Source: an uncultured Candidatus Saccharibacteria bacterium (GTDB taxonomy: Bacteria; Patescibacteriota; Minisyncoccia; Phycocordibacterales; DATDWN01). Taken from it: DNA of 63,307 nt. Positions within the stretch are counted from its first letter, which is position 1, and each line of letters starts with the position of its first letter. A program made the translations under genes and the position numbers. Of the stretch, positions 3,922-22,911 are shown one piece after another. The stretch spans positions 25,142 to 88,448 of the forward strand of contig CAYRRP010000004.1 in NCBI GenBank assembly GCA_964426735.1, read 5' to 3'. The notes beneath the pieces were generated by a model. That model had not been told where the DNA came from, made no database searches, and saw only the letters and a list, made by a program, of their open reading frames with translations.

Positions 3922-4602
3922 ATGGAAGGGGATTCAAAAAGAGGACCAAAACCAAAAAAAATTATAGATGAAACCTGGCGACCTGATTTGGCTTACGCTA
4001 TCGGACTACTTGCATCTGATGGGTGTTTGTCGAGTGATGGTTTGCTGATTGATTTAACCTCAAACGAAAGAGAGCAATTAGAAAATTATTCCAAATGTCT
4101 CGGTGTTAATTTTACAATAGGGGAGAAAAAAGCTAACCATGGTATTAAGTATTTAAGGGTTCAATTTAAAAATCGTATTTTCTATAACTTTCTATTATCA
4201 ATCGGACTGACAAGAAAAAAATCTTTAACTCTCAATAAACTTGCTATACCAGATAAATACTTTTTTGATTTTTTAAGAGGACTTTTTGATGGGGATGGTT
4301 GTAGTTATAGTTACTGGGATCCTCGATGGAAATCAAGTTTTATGTTTTATGTTGGTTTTACATCTGGAAGTAAAGATTTTATTTACTGGATTCGACAAGA
4401 AATAAAAAACAAGATAGGAATAAATGGGCATATTACAAAGTCAAAAAGAAAAAATCCTTGTTATCAAATTAAATATGCAAAAAATGAAGCTATTAAATTG
4501 ATCCAACAAATGTATAAAAACAATAAATGTGTTTGCTTGAGTAGGAAAAGGTTGAAAATTAATGAATCTTTAGGTACTATAGGCGTACCTCTAATTGGTT
4601 AA
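3922..4602 (+). CDS. Free-standing double-motif LAGLIDADG homing endonuclease
   Basis: Two LAGLIDADG motifs are present: LAYAIGLLASDGCL and FLRGLFDGDGC. Confidence 0.85.
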   Translation: MEGDSKRGPKPKKIIDETWRPDLAYAIGLLASDGCLSSDGLLIDLTSNEREQLENYSKCLGVNFTIGEKKANHGIKYLRVQFKNRIFYNFLLSIGLTRKKSLTLNKLAIPDKYFFDFLRGLFDGDGCSYSYWDPRWKSSFMFYVGFTSGSKDFIYWIRQEIKNKIGINGHITKSKRKNPCYQIKYAKNEAIKLIQQMYKNNKCVCLSRKRLKINESLGTIGVPLIG

Positions 4603-4621
4603 GTCTAGTGTATGAAAATTT

Positions 4622-4706
4622 GCCCAGGTGTCGTAATTGGTAGCCGAGCACCCTTGAGGTGGGTGTGCCGTAAGGTGTGGAGGTTCGAGTCCTCTCCTGG
4701 GCACCA
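4622..4706 (+). tRNA. tRNA-Leu (anticodon GAG), CCA encoded
   Basis: Acceptor GCCCAGG/CCTGGGC, anticodon loop TTGAGGT, long variable arm, T arm GGAGGTTCGAGTCCTCT, 3' ACCA. Confidence 0.9.
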
Positions 4707-4745
4707 TAAGAAAAAACCGCTTAATGCGGTTTTTTCTTATGGTGC
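4701..4745. terminator. Perfect 20-bp palindrome that includes the tRNA-Leu 3' end and CCA
   Basis: GCACCATAAGAAAAAACCGC (4701-4720) pairs with GCGGTTTTTTCTTATGGTGC (4726-4745). Confidence 0.75.
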
Positions 4746-4793
4746 ACAGAGCAAAGCAAAGCTTTGCGGAGAGGACTCGAACGACGACCCATC

Positions 4794-6071
4794 CTATTTC
4801 TTCGACGGCAATATAATCTCCGTCACGGTATACGCTGGGTCTGTGAGATATATTCCTATATTTTGCATATCTTCAAATGTCATTGTTTCCCGATCTTCGA
4901 TATTCTCAGTAAGTTTTTTTATAGTGTTGGTACGAACAACCTCAGATGTTACATTGTGTGCAATATCTTCACTATCGTGCTCACTTGCTCGAAGTTGTTC
5001 AAGACTTATATGGCGCATTTGTTCAAAACGATTTTTATATACATCTGTATGCGTGAGAAGTTTGATTTGTTCTTTGATTACATCGAGCACAATAACCTTG
5101 TGTTCTTCAGAGGTTTTGATATCAATAGAAAAATTAACATAATGAGCGCCGCGTCTGCTTGATACGTGGACTCCATAACAGAGTGGTTGTTCATCTCGGA
5201 GTTTCTCATGCAAGATATCCTGAAGTACTCGTCGGAACACATGCTCGTGGTCTCGAGGGTTTCCTCGGATATCTTTATGTAGGGAAATGTTTATCTCAAC
5301 CTGTTCTTTTACAAGACCGATTTCATCGGCTATTTTTACAATCTCATTGATGAGAGGAAGTGGAGTTTTTTCTGTAGTATTTTCTGTACGTAGGCCTTTT
5401 GGAAGTGTGTGTATTATTTCTTCCAAATCATGCAAAGATGAATCTTGAATATTTCCCACAAGAATAATATTCATGTTGACTGTGTGATAATGATTTTTGT
5501 GCCACAAACGCACATCCTCGGCAGTGATACCATTGATACTCTCGGGCCAACCAAGTGCACTTGAGACTCGTGAGAGTGAGTGACCAGGAAATACTTTTTG
5601 AGTAAATTCATGGATATAGGAAAGAAGTTTTTCATTTTGAAAATATCCCCACGCTTCCTGAGTGATCACTTTTCTTTCATGTTCAACATCCTCATCTCGA
5701 AGAAGAGGGGAGAAAATCTGCTCCGTCATTTTTTCAAGTACTGGTTTGAATTTTTCCGGAAGGCATTTGAGGTGGTAAGCAGTGTTGTAGTGCCCGGTGT
5801 ACGCATTCCATGTATCAAGTGTTTCATTTTTTCTCCACTCATTTACTTCTTTTCGGTCGGCAAAACTCGGTGAGCCGTCAAATATCATATGTTCGAGAAA
5901 ATGAGACAACCCTTCTTTTCCTCCTGGATCTTTAAACGCACCAGTATTAAATGAAATATATACATGAATACATGGCGCCCATGGGAGGTTCTTGTAATAC
6001 ACGGGCACATCGTTGATTTCTTTTTTAGAGAAATCATACGGGTCAAATGCAAGAGGTTTTGATTGTGTCAT
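4794..6071 (-). CDS. M16 (pitrilysin/insulinase) family zinc peptidase
   Basis: Inverted zinc motif HFLEHMIF (HxxEH) near the N-terminus. Size of about 425 aa fits the family. Confidence 0.85.
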   Translation of the reverse strand: MTQSKPLAFDPYDFSKKEINDVPVYYKNLPWAPCIHVYISFNTGAFKDPGGKEGLSHFLEHMIFDGSPSFADRKEVNEWRKNETLDTWNAYTGHYNTAYHLKCLPEKFKPVLEKMTEQIFSPLLRDEDVEHERKVITQEAWGYFQNEKLLSYIHEFTQKVFPGHSLSRVSSALGWPESINGITAEDVRLWHKNHYHTVNMNIILVGNIQDSSLHDLEEIIHTLPKGLRTENTTEKTPLPLINEIVKIADEIGLVKEQVEINISLHKDIRGNPRDHEHVFRRVLQDILHEKLRDEQPLCYGVHVSSRRGAHYVNFSIDIKTSEEHKVIVLDVIKEQIKLLTHTDVYKNRFEQMRHISLEQLRASEHDSEDIAHNVTSEVVRTNTIKKLTENIEDRETMTFEDMQNIGIYLTDPAYTVTEIILPSKK

Positions 6072-6218
6072 GTGTTGAGTATATGGCTAAAGTGTATGTC
6101 GGGGCAAGAGGGTGTAGTTTTTGGTTTGTTGTCTGTGTAAGTAAGGATGGTGGTTTCTGTATTTACAGAAGCCACCATCTTTACTTGAAAAAATTAATTT
6201 GCTAAAATTTAAATCAAG

Positions 6219-6725
6219 ATGGTAAGTGTATTTTGCATGTTTTGTTCAAAAAATTTTTCCACCAAACCTTCCTGGGTAGCAAGGGGATATGGAAAGTATT
6301 GCAGTATGACATGTAAGATAAAAGCTCAAAAAACAGGTCAGATTGTAAATTGTGCTGTGTGCGGAAAAGAGACGTATAAAACCATAAAAGCACTTAGGTT
6401 ATCTAAAAGTAAAAAATATTTTTGCAATAAATCTTGTCAGGCTATATGGAGAAATGCTGAGTTTGTAGGGGAAAAACACTCAAATTACATCTCAGGTAAA
6501 TCTTCGTATAAAAGTATTTTAACTAGAAATAAATTTCCTAAGATTTGTGGTTTGTGTGGTACGGAGGATGTGAGGGTGTTGGCAGTGCATCATGTTGATG
6601 GTAATCATTATAATAATGAAGTTAATAATTTAGCTTGGCTGTGTCATAATTGCCATCACCTAGTACATCATGATAATGTAGAAAAGCTTAAGTTTGCAGG
6701 TATACATAGACTTAGAGCGCAGTAA
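6219..6725 (+). CDS. HNH endonuclease with N-terminal Cys-rich zinc ribbons
   Basis: HHVDGNHYNNEVNNLAWLCHNCHHLVHH is an HNH core. Upstream CxxC pairs (CMFC, CSMTC, CAVC, CNKSC) are present. Confidence 0.85.
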   Translation: MVSVFCMFCSKNFSTKPSWVARGYGKYCSMTCKIKAQKTGQIVNCAVCGKETYKTIKALRLSKSKKYFCNKSCQAIWRNAEFVGEKHSNYISGKSSYKSILTRNKFPKICGLCGTEDVRVLAVHHVDGNHYNNEVNNLAWLCHNCHHLVHHDNVEKLKFAGIHRLRAQ

Positions 6726-6726
6726 T

Positions 6727-6801
6727 GGTGACTATAGTTTAGTGGTAAAACTCCGGTTTGTGGAACCGGTATCGAGAGTCCGATTCTCTCTAGTCACCCC
6801 A
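6727..6801 (+). tRNA. tRNA-His (anticodon GTG) with encoded G-1 and CCA
   Basis: An extra 5' G pairs with C73. Acceptor GTGACTA/TAGTCAC and anticodon loop TTGTGGA. It starts 1 nt after the HNH stop codon. Confidence 0.9.
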
Positions 6802-6888
6802 CAATGAATTTGTATGTTTGTCAAATACTAAAAAATCCCTACTTGGTGGGATTTTTTAGTTCTATGTAACTCATGATACTCTTTAGTA

Positions 6889-7356
6889 ATGAGAGCGACT
6901 ATAAAAAAGTTAATCAGATTTTTTAGACCTGTCTATTGGCCACTTATAAAAGCTTATTTTATTTTGTTTAGTCCTGAAACTAAAGGAGCGAGAATTATTC
7001 TTACATATAAAAATGAAATTCTTTTTATAAGACATAGTTATGGACTCAAGTATAATTTTCCAGGTGGAGGAATTGGAAAATCTGAAGATCCAGAAGATGG
7101 GGTAAAAAGAGAGGTGAGGGAAGAGTTGGGCATTGATCTTGATAAGGTTCACTACATTACTTCACTTGTGCCAGATGTAGCATATGAGTATAGAAAAAAC
7201 ACGATATCAATCTTTACTGCAGAATTACAAACTAAAGATATTAACATTAACAATTTAGAAATTGCGGATGCACAATGGTTGCCACTCACCAACCCTCCCT
7301 CGCTTGGACATGTTGCATATCAAATCTTCCAGTTGTATAAAACAACTAAGGTTTAA
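6889..7356 (+). CDS. NUDIX hydrolase
   Basis: Nudix box GGGIGKSEDPEDGVKREVREELGI. Confidence 0.85.
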   Translation: MRATIKKLIRFFRPVYWPLIKAYFILFSPETKGARIILTYKNEILFIRHSYGLKYNFPGGGIGKSEDPEDGVKREVREELGIDLDKVHYITSLVPDVAYEYRKNTISIFTAELQTKDININNLEIADAQWLPLTNPPSLGHVAYQIFQLYKTTKV

Positions 7357-18684: not shown

Positions 18685-18892
18685 GAAACGTCGACGAGCC
18701 GGAGGTCGACGGACCGAGGCGGGCTCGCGCAACTTTTCAGTAGAAAAGTATGTGTGAGTGGATGTAACTAAATACCACTAGACTTTTCTATTTTGGTTTT
18801 GATATACTAATTAGACAAAAGACGCCTCCGGGTGTCTTTTGTATTTGTGTTTTCTGGTGTGAATTGCTAGTCTGTTTTCAGAAAGGGTGAGT

Positions 18893-19492
18893 ATGATCAA
18901 GATCGAGCGTCCGAGCTGGGAAGAAGCGTTTCTTCTTGACATTATAGTTGGTGGACTTCGTTCCACCTGCTTAAAGAGAAAGGTGTGTGCAGGATTGGTA
19001 AAGTATAATCGAGTTCTTGCGCGAGGATATAATGGAGCCCCTCCTGATGTAGAAACATGTTTGCAAACAGGAGAGTGTTACTATGAGCGTCTAGCCTGGG
19101 AAGATCATCTTAAGGGTCATGGGGAGTTCCCGATACTGAAAGAGGCAAGAAAACAATTCTGCAATGCAATACATGCAGAAAAGAACGCATTCAATCAGTG
19201 TATTCAAACAGGGGTCATCCCTATCGGAGCATCCTTGTATACCACCAATTTCCCATGTCCGGGGTGTGTGCGAGATGTGGTGATTCCAAACAAAATTGCC
19301 GAAGTGGTTGTGTGGAAGCCATTTCTCTCAAATATCACACTGACTGCTGATGAGTTGACGGTGAGTAAGTCTTGGCTCAGACAAGCGAACATACCGACAC
19401 GTACCATAAACATAACTGATGCACGGTTGCAAGATTTACTTAGCTTGTTTCCTTCTGTTGGAGATCGGATTGAGTATGTTTTTCAACCATAA
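18893..19492 (+). CDS. dCMP deaminase (CMP/dCMP deaminase zinc-binding family)
   Basis: Zinc and catalytic motifs HAEKNAF and PCPGCVRDV. The ATG at 18893 is preceded by GAAAGGGTGA. Confidence 0.8.
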   Translation: MIKIERPSWEEAFLLDIIVGGLRSTCLKRKVCAGLVKYNRVLARGYNGAPPDVETCLQTGECYYERLAWEDHLKGHGEFPILKEARKQFCNAIHAEKNAFNQCIQTGVIPIGASLYTTNFPCPGCVRDVVIPNKIAEVVVWKPFLSNITLTADELTVSKSWLRQANIPTRTINITDARLQDLLSLFPSVGDRIEYVFQP

Positions 19493-19499
19493 AAAGATA

Positions 19500-19536
19500 C
19501 CCCACAGGTGCGCAACGCGCACCTGTGGGGATTTTG
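19500..19536. terminator. Bidirectional GC-rich terminator between convergent genes
   Basis: CCCCACAGGTGCGC / GCGCACCTGTGGGG, followed by ATTTTGTTT. Confidence 0.75.
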
Positions 19537-19537
19537 T

Positions 19538-20860
19538 TTAGACTTCTTTTTTGATGATGTCGTGTCTGCCACGAAGAGTTGACCACTCATCAGGAGACAT
19601 GTCACAGTGCAGCATGATATCTGGAATCACCGTCTTTAGTGCATATCCGATGTTCTGGGCCACAGGACGAAGAGTTGGATGAACGCTTTGTCCACTGCGT
19701 AGTTCAGCAATATAGACACTTGATGGAATGCTAGCTGTCATTTCACAACCAACCTGGTATCCCATTGCGATATAGTATTGCCGAATGAGTGGGTCAGTGA
19801 TTTTCCTGATCTCGTCTTCTTGGAGAGAAATCGTTTCCATGGTACAGGATCGGAGCTCTTCAGGTAGATTTTCCAAGTACCATGGGTGAAAGCCGATGTC
19901 TGTAGTTAACAGCGGCATGATTTGCGTACAGCTCCGTTGTCGTTGGATGTCACGAAACGATCCGAAGTCTATATGGAACATGTATTGTAACTGTCCATAC
20001 CGATCGAACCAGTCAGGGATTTCAGTTTTAGCAGGTCTGTTTGTGAGAAGGTCGAGATGTTTCTTGCGACCATATAGTTTTGCTGTTTGGATTGTGTCAG
20101 TGAAATAAAAATCACTGTCATGTCTCATGTACTCGTACTCGAGTTCTCCGCATCGTGCATAGAACGCATCCTGTTCACTGTAGGATTTGAACGAGAAGCT
20201 GTTTGGGTATTTTGCTTGCAACTCGCTCAGCATGCTTTGTGCGGCTTGGCGCACCTCTTCGAGAGGATGGAACGACATTTCTTTAATGTGATCCCATGCC
20301 TGTCTCAAGTTGGTGTGCCACCCAACATATGTGGTTGATCCTGCTGGAAGAAACGACCGAGCAATATCAAAAGCTTTTGCTTTAATTGCCTTGAAATGCT
20401 CTTTCGGATTATCTGTCTCTAGGGCAGGGTATTTCCCCATTAGAAAAGGAACCAGTTTTTCGAGTGCGATGGAATACAACAGCATCCACCTCTCCTGAAT
20501 CCCTCGCCCCTGTTCTGTGCCAAGTGGGTTGAGTACCGCCTGAGCACTCATGTCTAAATATCGAGTGCTCGCTTCTTGCCCATTGTATAGACGATTGTTC
20601 TGAATCGCTTTTGCATTGAGCATGCTTCCATTCTCGTGACAGATGGTGGTCGAGCCACAGTCGCCAATAGACTTATGGCCGTACCCAACATAGTAAGTTC
20701 CCATAAATCTTTGAGGACCCACCTTGTTAATTTGTTCGAGATGTACTCGCACTGAGCGAGGGTCTCGTGAATACAACGAAAGTGCCATTGCAGCTTCTTC
20801 CGGAGCAAGGTGATCAAAGATGATAACCTCTGACTCTGGTAAGTTAACAATTTTCGGCAT
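19538..20860 (-). CDS. Tandem-duplicated, divergent ThyX-like (Thy1 family) protein, putative flavin-dependent thymidylate synthase
   Basis: Half 1 has GHKSIGDCG (compare GHxSxxEH), QEASTRYL (the SxRY motif) and ARSFLPAGSTT...NLRQ..H. Half 2 has FRDIQRQRS (compare RHR) and AELRSGQSVHPTLRPVA. The canonical motifs are split between the two halves. Confidence 0.5.
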   Translation of the reverse strand: MPKIVNLPESEVIIFDHLAPEEAAMALSLYSRDPRSVRVHLEQINKVGPQRFMGTYYVGYGHKSIGDCGSTTICHENGSMLNAKAIQNNRLYNGQEASTRYLDMSAQAVLNPLGTEQGRGIQERWMLLYSIALEKLVPFLMGKYPALETDNPKEHFKAIKAKAFDIARSFLPAGSTTYVGWHTNLRQAWDHIKEMSFHPLEEVRQAAQSMLSELQAKYPNSFSFKSYSEQDAFYARCGELEYEYMRHDSDFYFTDTIQTAKLYGRKKHLDLLTNRPAKTEIPDWFDRYGQLQYMFHIDFGSFRDIQRQRSCTQIMPLLTTDIGFHPWYLENLPEELRSCTMETISLQEDEIRKITDPLIRQYYIAMGYQVGCEMTASIPSSVYIAELRSGQSVHPTLRPVAQNIGYALKTVIPDIMLHCDMSPDEWSTLRGRHDIIKKEV

Positions 20861-20971: not shown

Positions 20972-21661
20972 ATGATGGTTCAAACATATCTACCTCTTCA
21001 GTTGCCAGTATTTGCGTTTGAGGGTATTGATGGTTCTGGTAAGACAACGATAGTTGAGAGGTTGCGGAATGATCCACAAGTTGGCCTCTCTCGAGCTTGC
21101 TTTACTCGAGAACCAGGCGGGTCACTTATTGGTGAAAAGATTCGTTTTCTGCTCCTGAACGATAAAGAGTCAGAAGACGAGTCTCCACTTACGCGACTAC
21201 TGTTGTTTATGTCGTCGCGATCATCAAATGTTGATAAGATTGTCAGGCCGGCTTTACACAACGGAAAGATGGTGATATCGGATCGTTTAGATGCTTCCAC
21301 ATTTGCATTCCAGTTGTGGGGTGGTAAGTGTCAGAATCTCGAAAAGATTTTCTACTATCTACGTAATGAAATTTTGGGACAGCTGCCAATCCAATATATC
21401 TATTTGCGGATTACTCCTGAGGAGGCAGCTCTTCGCAGAGTTGGGAGATCTGAGGCTGCTCGAAATTTTCTTGATGATCTTCCTCCGGATTTCCATCAGC
21501 GGGTATTTGAAGGGTACGAGCTTTTCTTTAAAAGGGTGGCATATGAAGCTATGAAGCAGGAAAACCCTTTACATGTTGTTCATACTGTCGATGCTTCATG
21601 TGACGAAGATGAAGTTTATGGGAAGGTGCTCGATGTTGTGTTGCGAGCGTGGGGAAGTTAG
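20972..21661 (+). CDS. tmk: Thymidylate kinase
   Basis: P-loop FEGIDGSGKTT, the TREPGG motif and a DR...S..AFQ region. Confidence 0.85.
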   Translation: MMVQTYLPLQLPVFAFEGIDGSGKTTIVERLRNDPQVGLSRACFTREPGGSLIGEKIRFLLLNDKESEDESPLTRLLLFMSSRSSNVDKIVRPALHNGKMVISDRLDASTFAFQLWGGKCQNLEKIFYYLRNEILGQLPIQYIYLRITPEEAALRRVGRSEAARNFLDDLPPDFHQRVFEGYELFFKRVAYEAMKQENPLHVVHTVDASCDEDEVYGKVLDVVLRAWGS

Positions 21662-21732
21662 ACACCGTAAGGTGTCCAACTTCCTCTTTTTATTATTAAA
21701 AATGCTATTATGTGCATGTTTTAAAATTTCAT

Positions 21733-22911
21733 ATGAAAGACACACAAATCAAAAAACTTATCGATGCAGAAAAGAAAAGACAAAAGAAAGTTATCAACCT
21801 GATTGCATCTGAAAACTACGTCTCAAAAGATGTGCTCGAAGCGCTTGGTTCAGAACTTACCAATAAGTACGCAGAAGGGTATCCGGGTAAACGATATTAT
21901 GGAGGTCAGGTGCATGTTGATCAGATTGAAATCTTGGCACAAGAGAGAGCGTTAAAACTTTTTGGTTTGTCTTCTAAAAAATGGCACGTCAATGTACAAC
22001 CTCTTTCAGGCTCACCGGCAAACTTGGCGGTGTATGTAGGACTCGTTCCAAAAGAGGGGAAGATTATGGGTATGTCACTCGACCATGGAGGACATCTGAC
22101 TCATGGACACAAAGTGTCTGCGACAGGTAAGTTTTGGCAACAGGTTCCATATGGAGTCGATCCAGTTACAGAAGTTATCAACTACGATGAAATAAAAAAG
22201 ATTGCACAGCAAGAAAAGCCACAAATCATTGTTGCAGGATTTACCGCGTATCCTCGAAAAGTTGATTTTAAAAAGTTTCGGGAAATTGCAGATAGTGTGG
22301 GTGCATTGCTTATGGTGGACATGTCGCACTTTGGTGGGTTGGTCGCAGGTAAGGCATATGCATCTCCTTTTTTATATGCAGATGTGGTGACCACTACTGT
22401 ACATAAGACACTTCGTGGTCCGCGCGCTGCGATGATTTTCTCAAAGATTGATGAAAGAGAATTGTATAAAAAAATAGACCGAGCAGTGTTTCCGGGGCTT
22501 CAAGGCGGACCACATCTAAATCAAATTGCTGGTATTGCGGTAGCGCTCAAAGAAGCAGATACACCAGCATTTAAAACATATGCAAAGCAAGTGGTAAAAA
22601 ATGCATCGACACTTGCAAAAGAATTAAAAAAACGAGGATGGAAAATTATTTCAGGAGGTACTGACACTCATCTTATTTTGATGGATACATGGATGGGAGG
22701 TGCGGGTATTTCTGGAAAAGAGGCGAGTGATCGCTTGGAGGCAGAAGGGATTATTGTAAACAAAAATAGTATTCCCGGAGAGACTCGTTCACCAATGGAT
22801 CCTTCTGGTATCCGCTTGGGTACTGCAGCCGAAACAACTCGAGGTAAAAAAGAGAAAGATATGATAAAAATTGCACAGAAAATTGATACCATCTTACGTA
22901 AAAAGCTATAA
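21733..22911 (+). CDS. glyA: Serine hydroxymethyltransferase
   Basis: LIASENYVS, NKYAEGYPGKRYYGG and the PLP-lysine motif TTTVHKTLRGPR. Confidence 0.93.
   Translation: MKDTQIKKLIDAEKKRQKKVINLIASENYVSKDVLEALGSELTNKYAEGYPGKRYYGGQVHVDQIEILAQERALKLFGLSSKKWHVNVQPLSGSPANLAVYVGLVPKEGKIMGMSLDHGGHLTHGHKVSATGKFWQQVPYGVDPVTEVINYDEIKKIAQQEKPQIIVAGFTAYPRKVDFKKFREIADSVGALLMVDMSHFGGLVAGKAYASPFLYADVVTTTVHKTLRGPRAAMIFSKIDERELYKKIDRAVFPGLQGGPHLNQIAGIAVALKEADTPAFKTYAKQVVKNASTLAKELKKRGWKIISGGTDTHLILMDTWMGGAGISGKEASDRLEAEGIIVNKNSIPGETRSPMDPSGIRLGTAAETTRGKKEKDMIKIAQKIDTILRKKL

Follow-up and report, generated by a model that had tools for sequence, protein, structure and literature searches.

The 63,307-nucleotide stretch of Candidatus Saccharibacteria DNA analyzed here (the window) carries on its minus strand, at positions 19538–20860, an uninterrupted open reading frame (ORF) with an ATG start that encodes 440 amino acids (aa) followed by a stop codon. 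Its product is likely to be a flavin-dependent thymidylate synthase (ThyX, also abbreviated FDTS) of unusual build, in which two ThyX domains are joined in a single chain. The gene converges with a deoxycytidine monophosphate (dCMP) deaminase gene across a gap of 45 base pairs (bp) and diverges from a thymidylate kinase (Tmk) gene, which a gene for serine hydroxymethyltransferase (SHMT) follows; the genes for NusG and ribosomal protein L11 lie upstream of the deaminase gene, and an arginyl-tRNA synthetase (ArgRS) gene comes after SHMT. ThyX is an antibiotic target, and its active site is built from three of four identical subunits. Ordinary ThyX is hard to dissect, because a single mutation changes each of the four sites and each of the three subunit roles at the same time. 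Residue numbers below are those of the 440-aa product, whose residues 1–221 we call half 1 and whose residues 222–440 we call half 2; the coordinates of all features are collected in Table 1.

Domain architecture of the 440-residue protein

Scanning the 440-aa protein against Pfam returned a single Thy1 (PF02511) match, which covers residues 50–220 with an E value of 1.1e-12 and a score of 48.5 bits at a cutoff of 24.8. A phmmer search with the full protein against the sequences of the PDB gave no match, and a profile of 38 relatives matched the ThyX proteins of Mycobacterium tuberculosis (Mtb) and Corynebacterium glutamicum via half 1 only, at E values of about 1e-3. BLASTP produced no alignment between half 1 and half 2, and hhalign of the half-1 profile against the half-2 profile reached a probability of 11.7 % with an alignment that was out of register. 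When hhalign was used to compare half profiles built from 113 family sequences with aligned single-domain ThyX from phages and Mtb, half 1 was matched with a probability of 97.4 % (E 9e-12).

The duplicated architecture became visible at the level of the fold. The full-length protein was modelled from the family alignment by AlphaFold 2 (AF2) with a predicted local distance difference test score (pLDDT) of 90.7 and a predicted template modelling score (pTM) of 0.87, and the best matches of this model in a PDB fold search were all ThyX, at 17–20 % identity. Residues 222–440 modelled on their own reached a pLDDT of 91.2, and Foldseek retrieved 130 PDB chains for this half-2 model at E ≤ 1e-3. 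The best 50 of these 130 matches, with template modelling (TM) scores of 0.45–0.55 and 9–16 % identity, were ThyX/FDTS chains with the single exception of PolB, a methylase homologous to ThyX. Traces of the relationship are also found in the sequences of relatives, as half 2 of 10 out of 31 relatives scanned alone gave a weak Pfam Thy1 match with a best E value of 8.9e-4. The predicted structures thus confirm that both halves are ThyX-fold domains, the second of which is too divergent for Pfam.

The original prediction had described the ORF as two Thy1-like domains, which holds for half 1 by Pfam and for half 2 by AF2 and Foldseek. It had also expected two Thy1 matches in a domain scan and had taken a single match as grounds for giving up the idea; one match, in half 1, is what the scan gave. 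This test turned out to be too strict, because half 2 lies beyond the reach of Pfam and is clearly of the ThyX fold. No solved structure of a two-domain ThyX was present among the PDB fold matches listed.

Active-site residues and their predicted assembly

The contributions of the individual subunits are described for Mtb ThyX, in which the RHR motif (residues 95–97) of subunit A binds the phosphates and the ribityl moiety of flavin adenine dinucleotide (FAD), with R95 also touching the flavin and deoxyuridine monophosphate (dUMP), and R199 of the same subunit binds dUMP. The phosphates of this FAD are also contacted by S71 and R190, which subunit B contributes. Subunit C provides R87, S105 and R107 for dUMP binding and Y108 as a lid over the reactive atoms (PMC6514825). 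In the ThyX of PBCV-1, two different monomers supply Ser88 and Arg182, the latter being equivalent to R199 (PMC3498832). For Thermotoga maritima (Tm) ThyX, R174, S88, R90 and Y91 are given as the catalytic residues, and single substitutions of R90, Y91, S88 or R174 cripple the enzyme (PMC8316439).

We mapped the window protein to Mtb ThyX numbering by a hidden Markov model alignment, hhalign alignments and the secondary-structure register, and assessed conservation in the 113 family sequences, which consist of 38 database proteins and the ORFs from 80 genomic loci. By translation, every motif that the original prediction had quoted is found at its place, namely GHKS (61–64), NNRLYNG (88–94), QEASTRYL (95–102), ARSFLP (167–172) and NLR (184–186) in half 1, as well as FRDIQRQRS (302–310) and the ELRSGQSVHPTLRPVA segment (386–401) in half 2. 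Half 1 keeps the equivalents of S71, R190, S105, R107, Y108 and R172. It has lost the RHR motif, with NNRLYNG standing where RHR is expected in the alignment to Mtb ThyX, and the R199 position is variable. Half 2 keeps the equivalents of RHR, which reads RQR in the window protein, and of R199; the other mapped residues are lost, as P379 takes the place of R190 and half 2 has neither a GHxS loop nor SxRY. An extended hhalign comparison aligned the whole of half 2 with single-domain ThyX, pairing RQR with RHR and R388 with R199. The full-length model agrees with this assignment in that residues 88–90 and 307–309 occupy the same secondary-structure register, each following directly after the helix behind the central strand, and the low pLDDT at the GHKS loop fits a mobile loop.

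The contiguous ThyX motif RHRxxSxxxxSxRY is consequently found in neither domain, half 1 reading NNR...STRY and half 2 reading RQR...MPLL. According to the mapping, the full set of FAD and dUMP contacts, R87 aside, is present and invariant or near-invariant once both halves are combined, and S64, S98, R100, R168, R186, R307, R309 and R388 are found in 113 of 113 sequences. The split of the motifs between the halves, as first noticed in the window protein, is conserved in 113 relatives, and it recurs in divergent long-form sequences of 30–39 % identity (alignment A3) and in a homologue from a Vibrio phage. Purifying selection acts strongly on both halves, with a mean pairwise identity of 0.61 for half 1 and 0.53 for half 2, and 59 positions of half 1 and 35 of half 2 are conserved to at least 97 %. 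The basic residues K84, R303, R398 and R430 are likewise invariant or near-invariant. Behind half 2 proper, a conserved C-terminal tail has no counterpart in single-domain ThyX, and the confidence of the model falls there.

Table 1. Positions, strands and supporting evidence of the features discussed in the text; fractions refer to the 113 family sequences.
Feature	Position	Strand	Evidence or conservation
Predicted fused two-domain ThyX	19538..20860	-	complete ORF; full-length AF2 model and PDB fold matches
Half 1, recognizable Thy1 domain, predicted B and C subunit roles	20198..20860	-	Pfam Thy1; profile match to Mtb ThyX; hhalign
Half 2, divergent ThyX-fold domain, predicted A subunit role, with C-terminal tail	19541..20197	-	AF2; Foldseek; weak Pfam matches in orthologues
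GHKS loop; H62 = Mtb H69 / Tm H53, S64 = Mtb S71	20669..20680	-	H62 112/113, S64 113/113
NNR (88–90) at the position of R95-H96-R97, motif lost	20591..20599	-	family consensus D-W-P
S98-T99-R100-Y101; S98/R100/Y101 = Mtb S105/R107/Y108 = Tm S88/R90/Y91	20558..20569	-	S98 and R100 113/113, Y101 111/113
R168 = Mtb R172 / Tm R147, dUMP phosphate contact	20357..20359	-	alignment; 113/113
R186 = Mtb R190, FAD-phosphate contact	20303..20305	-	alignment; invariant in 113
S196 at the Mtb R199 / Tm R174 position of half 1	20273..20275	-	unconserved: R in 72/113, S here
R307-Q308-R309, RHR motif of half 2	19934..19942	-	R307 and R309 invariant; middle residue H 86/113, Q 27/113
M315-P316-L317-L318 in place of the S-x-R-Y loop, half 2	19907..19918	-	strongly conserved
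Q361-Y362-Y363; Q361 at the Mtb R172 position, half 2	19772..19780	-	Q361 invariant; Y362 and Y363 each 112/113
E386-L387-R388; R388 = Mtb R199 / Tm R174, dUMP-activating arginine of subunit A	19697..19705	-	hhalign; R388 113/113
Conserved C-terminal tail, residues 416–440	19541..19615	-	D420 111/113, W426 103/113, R430 111/113, G431 112/113, I435 at least 97 %
dCMP deaminase, dUMP supply, putative functional partner	18887..19492	+	Pfam PF00383, E 2.4e-11
Thymidylate kinase (Tmk), dTMP consumer, putative functional partner	20972..21661	+	Pfam PF02223, E 7.6e-30
SHMT, CH2-THF regeneration, putative functional partner	21712..22911	+	Pfam PF00464, E 1.1e-160
Putative bidirectional intrinsic terminator hairpin	19500..19530	both	14-bp perfect stem, 11 G-C pairs, T-runs on both strands

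Set against the published subunit assignments, the mapping assigns precisely the A residues to half 2 and precisely the B and C residues to half 1, the sole exception being R87, at whose position half 1 has M80. The dUMP phosphate contact R172, which we take to belong to subunit C from the T. maritima structure, fits this split. The fused pseudo-dimer of complementary degenerate halves proposed by the original prediction is therefore supported by the residue mapping together with the published assignments.

The gene product is likely to be a working flavin-dependent thymidylate synthase formed from duplicated, complementarily degenerate ThyX domains, which would act as a dimer with two complete sites. 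In the pathway we propose to this architecture, a ThyX domain would have been duplicated in tandem, and the two copies would then have undergone complementary loss of active-site residues, such that a half 2 domain would have to join with two half 1 domains to give a complete site. Since half 2 offers the A set only and half 1 the B and C sets only, a complete site would need at least two chains. In a tetramer of 222 symmetry, the roles (a,b,c) would be filled by the subunit triplets (A,B,C), (B,A,D), (C,D,A) and (D,C,B); with half 2 in the places of A and D and half 1 in those of B and C, sites 1 and 4 would be complete and sites 2 and 3 would be empty of all roles, an arrangement free of internal contradiction. 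A homodimer of fused chains would in this way form a 222 pseudo-tetramer with two complete FAD/dUMP sites and two vestigial sites, the latter being filled by the conserved non-catalytic residues D-W-P, MPLL and QYY. In particular, MPLL and QYY seem to occupy the vestigial pocket of half 2 with conserved residues, so that it is not left to drift. The complete sites would convert dUMP, methylenetetrahydrofolate (CH2-THF) and NADPH to deoxythymidine monophosphate (dTMP). The data show directly that both halves have the ThyX fold, how the residues map, and that these residues and the gene neighbourhood are conserved in the family; how the chains assemble, how many sites are active and that the protein is an active enzyme are inferred.

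Several points weigh against this reading. The window protein does not pass TIGR02170, the NCBIfam equivalog model for thyX, scoring 18.9 bits at a cutoff of 87.9, its own half 2 has no Pfam match, the half-2 profile found no ThyX among the PDB sequences, and hhalign of half 2 with single-domain ThyX, at a probability of 34.6 % and E 4e-4, gives weak sequence support. At the residue level, the protein has RQR and not RHR, which is a common variant because Q is found in 27 of the 113 relatives, and the Mtb R87 equivalent of subunit C is not kept in half 1. The dimer and its two-site stoichiometry are deduced from symmetry. A search for a second thymidylate synthase, for which Escherichia coli ThyA served as the thyA query, covered the window and the flanks, about 160 in number, of related loci; neither a thyA nor a single-domain thyX gene turned up there, which is weak evidence. 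Finally, we found no biochemical data on any member of the fused-ThyX family in the literature.

A further role for the vestigial sites is conceivable, as they could have been re-used for docking of NADPH or folate or as an allosteric nucleotide site. The basis for this idea is the (near-)invariance of MPLL, Q361-Y362-Y363 and D-W-P in the 113 sequences along with the conservation of the C-terminal tail, and we regard it as rather improbable. If true, it would give a ThyX with separate catalytic and regulatory or reductive sites, an architecture that to our knowledge is found in no thymidylate synthase.

With role A encoded apart from roles B and C, the fused ThyX would provide a natural asymmetric system, in which each contribution could be mutated separately and in which stoichiometry and half-site behaviour could be tested. 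It would also represent a clean case of duplication followed by complementary degeneration (subfunctionalization) within the active site of one enzyme. For annotation, the consequence is that TIGR02170 misses the fused form and that domain-based annotation sees only half of it.

Distribution and relation to known enzymes

Homology searching retrieved 3759 relatives (clusters at 90 % identity) at E ≤ 1e-3, the best 120 of which are 415–497 aa long. NCBI or JGI have already given several relatives the name "FAD-dependent thymidylate synthase" or "thymidylate synthase ThyX". The thymidylate synthase label is therefore present in databases, and it is the two-domain duplication and the split of the motifs that are apparently undescribed; in the literature we found no account of a fused, tandem or two-domain ThyX, of its complementary loss of residues, or of ThyX in the candidate phyla radiation (CPR, Patescibacteria). 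Scans of one genome per species yielded 400 carrier genomes, and at least 566 with a broader profile. The carriers are nearly all labelled Patescibacteria/CPR, among them Paceibacteria, Falkowbacteria, Moranbacteria, Gracilibacteria, Peregrinibacteria and others. The phylogenetic distribution that the original prediction had wished to see determined is thus that of at least 566 species genomes, mostly Patescibacteria, to which jumbo Vibrio phages are added. If the proposed architecture is correct, the main thymidylate synthase of a large radiation and of some jumbo phages would not be the textbook homotetramer. Some metagenome-assembled genomes (MAGs) with the gene, such as L081, L085, L086, L138, L157 and others, bear the labels Gammaproteobacteria, Bdellovibrionales, Saccharibacteria, Electrothrix or Blastochloris. 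These odd labels probably stem from mislabelled bins or contaminating contigs and do not indicate a truly wide distribution.

A profile of half 2 matched 1293 representative clusters out of 1.84 billion at E ≤ 1e-3, and 305 of these at E ≤ 1e-30. A stand-alone form of half 2 was considered and rejected, as among the matches listed the short ones are fragments from short contigs and the rest have fused length. A second long-form subfamily (P0173, P0148, P0209, P0264 and others) comprises at least 1393 proteins of about 445–520 aa, which carry an insert of about 40–50 aa early in half 1 (alignment A3, columns 195–245), and some of its members have SxRA or SxRF and not SxRY. All 17 divergent long-form members scanned match Pfam Thy1. 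A scan of the species genomes with the divergent alignment A3 again gave mostly Patescibacteria, and P0264 had no close relatives in the species-genome collection.

Compared to the single-domain ThyX/FDTS enzymes of T. maritima (TM0449), M. tuberculosis (Rv2754c), Helicobacter pylori and PBCV-1 (A674R), both halves of the fused form share the same fold, and by sequence the whole assembly would offer the same FAD/dUMP contact set. The logic of the metabolic neighbourhood, with dUMP supply, SHMT and Tmk, is the same as well. The single-domain enzymes are made of four identical chains of about 220–250 aa, whereas the fused form is a 440-aa chain of two non-identical domains, with RHR in half 2 only and SxRY in half 1 only. 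It is predicted to have two and not four active sites per (pseudo)tetramer, has the additional conserved C-terminal tail and fails the TIGR02170 threshold.

The chlamydial ThyX (Chlamydia trachomatis CT632), a biochemically characterized FDTS of about 529 aa and about twice the usual length, may have the same two-domain architecture; a literature search on the build of chlamydial ThyX gave no account of it. If so, it would supply direct biochemical evidence that the long form is a real thymidylate synthase. No chlamydial genome is among the carrier loci listed. Chlamydial ThyX has been reported as too divergent to be aligned with other ThyX proteins (PMC6171736).

Homologues of the fused form are also found in phages, where they stand in a viral context and are annotated only as "hypothetical" or as "thymidylate synthase(-complementing/-like) protein". 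A 461-aa "hypothetical protein" of Vibrio phage vB_VmeM-Yong (MS32; L167, positions 3977–5362) shares 33 % identity over 93 % of the query, reaches a TM score of 0.90 to the full-length model and has the same motif split. ORF269 of Vibrio phage BONAISHI is a long ThyX-like protein that we also count as the fused form; in its description the best BLAST hit is from Parcubacteria, the protein appears under no other name than thymidylate synthase-complementing protein and the duplication is not analyzed (PMC6207643). The 491-aa "thymidylate synthase" of Microcystis phage LMM01 (BFVD A0A7D4) has a TM score of 0.70 over 450 columns with both domains matched, and by its fold would belong to the fused form, too. 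These homologues suggest that CPR bacteria and large phages exchanged the fused-ThyX gene.

Gene neighbourhood and alternative explanations

The preferred reading of two complete and two vestigial sites has to be weighed against the possibility that all four pseudo-sites are active, the lost residues being replaced by K84 or R196/K193 in half 1 and by R303, R398 and R430 in half 2. The conservation of the four basic residues named above, K84, R303, R398 and R430, would agree with such a substitution, as would position 196, which is still Arg in 72 of the 113 sequences. However, a vestigial site would be without RHR, the S-x-R-Y loop, R172, S71 and R190 all at once. D/W/P, MPLL, Q361 and P379 stand in their place, and there is no GHxS loop at all. 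One substitution at R90, Y91, S88 or R174 is already enough to cripple T. maritima ThyX (PMC8316439), and we consider four active sites unlikely.

The neighbours of the gene bear on the question whether the fused protein would indeed make dTMP. Those in the window give a pathway, as dCMP deaminase converts dCMP to dUMP, Tmk converts dTMP to deoxythymidine diphosphate (dTDP), and SHMT makes CH2-THF from the tetrahydrofolate (THF) that ThyX releases. Within flanks of about 6 kb around thyX in 80 related loci, dCMP deaminase is found in 46, SHMT in 32 and Tmk in 19. In loci of the Falkowbacteria type (L047–L080) the deaminase gene immediately precedes the fused thyX in the same orientation, and the tblastn matches of the two in L057 (deaminase 5514–5981, thyX 5977–7284) even overlap. 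The two genes converge or stand apart in the window and its closer relatives, which shows that the functional linkage of deaminase and thyX is kept while the gene order shifts. This gene context supports real dTMP synthesis.

The same data bear on the proposal that the protein is a neofunctionalized enzyme of the ThyX fold, which would carry out flavin/folate chemistry on another substrate, such as UMP as in PolB, dCMP or a hydroxymethylation target, and would not synthesize dTMP. Its identity of 17–20 % to characterized ThyX and its failure at the TIGR02170 cutoff leave room for this, homologues are encoded by jumbo phages, a group with members that modify their own DNA, and the conserved tail, QYY and MPLL are without a known role. 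PolB itself (PDB 4p5a), a UMP/dUMP methylase of polyoxin biosynthesis, has the ThyX fold and was one of the chains that Foldseek retrieved for half 2. PolB is presumably a single-domain homotetramer encoded in an antibiotic gene cluster, in contrast to the two-domain fused ThyX in its housekeeping context of NusG, L11, dCMP deaminase, Tmk, SHMT and ArgRS, which does not have the features of a PolB-type enzyme. With the R87 position excepted, the residues that read the uracil and the deoxyribose phosphate (S98, R100, Y101, R168, R388 and R307) are invariant or near-invariant, the genes adjoining thyX here and in relatives are those of the dTMP pathway, and no other thymidylate synthase was seen nearby. 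In addition, the family is near-universal in the small genomes of Patescibacteria, which must make or acquire dTMP. The (near-)invariant nucleotide-binding residues and the pathway neighbourhood make a neofunctionalized enzyme distinctly unlikely, so the alternative raised in the original prediction, an enzyme modifying a different pyrimidine nucleotide, is not favoured.

Half 2 could also be a mere structural or pseudo-enzymatic appendage, with half 1 alone acting as a normal ThyX homotetramer, in line with the fact that only half 1 is recognizable as Thy1 by sequence. This is very improbable, as half 1 is without RHR across the family and its R199 position is unconserved. Because RHR and R199 are lost, half 1 domains alone could not bind FAD and activate dUMP in the known way. 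The idea was rejected since half 2, which is under strong constraint, invariantly keeps the RHR-type and R199 residues that are lost from half 1. There is practically no chance that the ORF is a pseudogene in decay or an artefact in which misassembly or a frameshift joined adjacent thyX genes: nothing was found in its favour, and it is refuted by the uninterrupted ORF of 430–470 aa that recurs with the same architecture in at least 566 species-level genomes, 3759 clusters and cultured phages, both halves being highly conserved.

The fused thymidylate synthase gene and its convergent neighbour appear to share their transcriptional end, as the hairpin in the 45-bp gap looks like a terminator common to the deaminase and thyX genes. 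The deaminase ORF itself encodes 201 aa from a GTG start, and its Pfam deaminase domain takes up residues 21–142 only, so that about 60 aa extend beyond the domain at the C-terminus.

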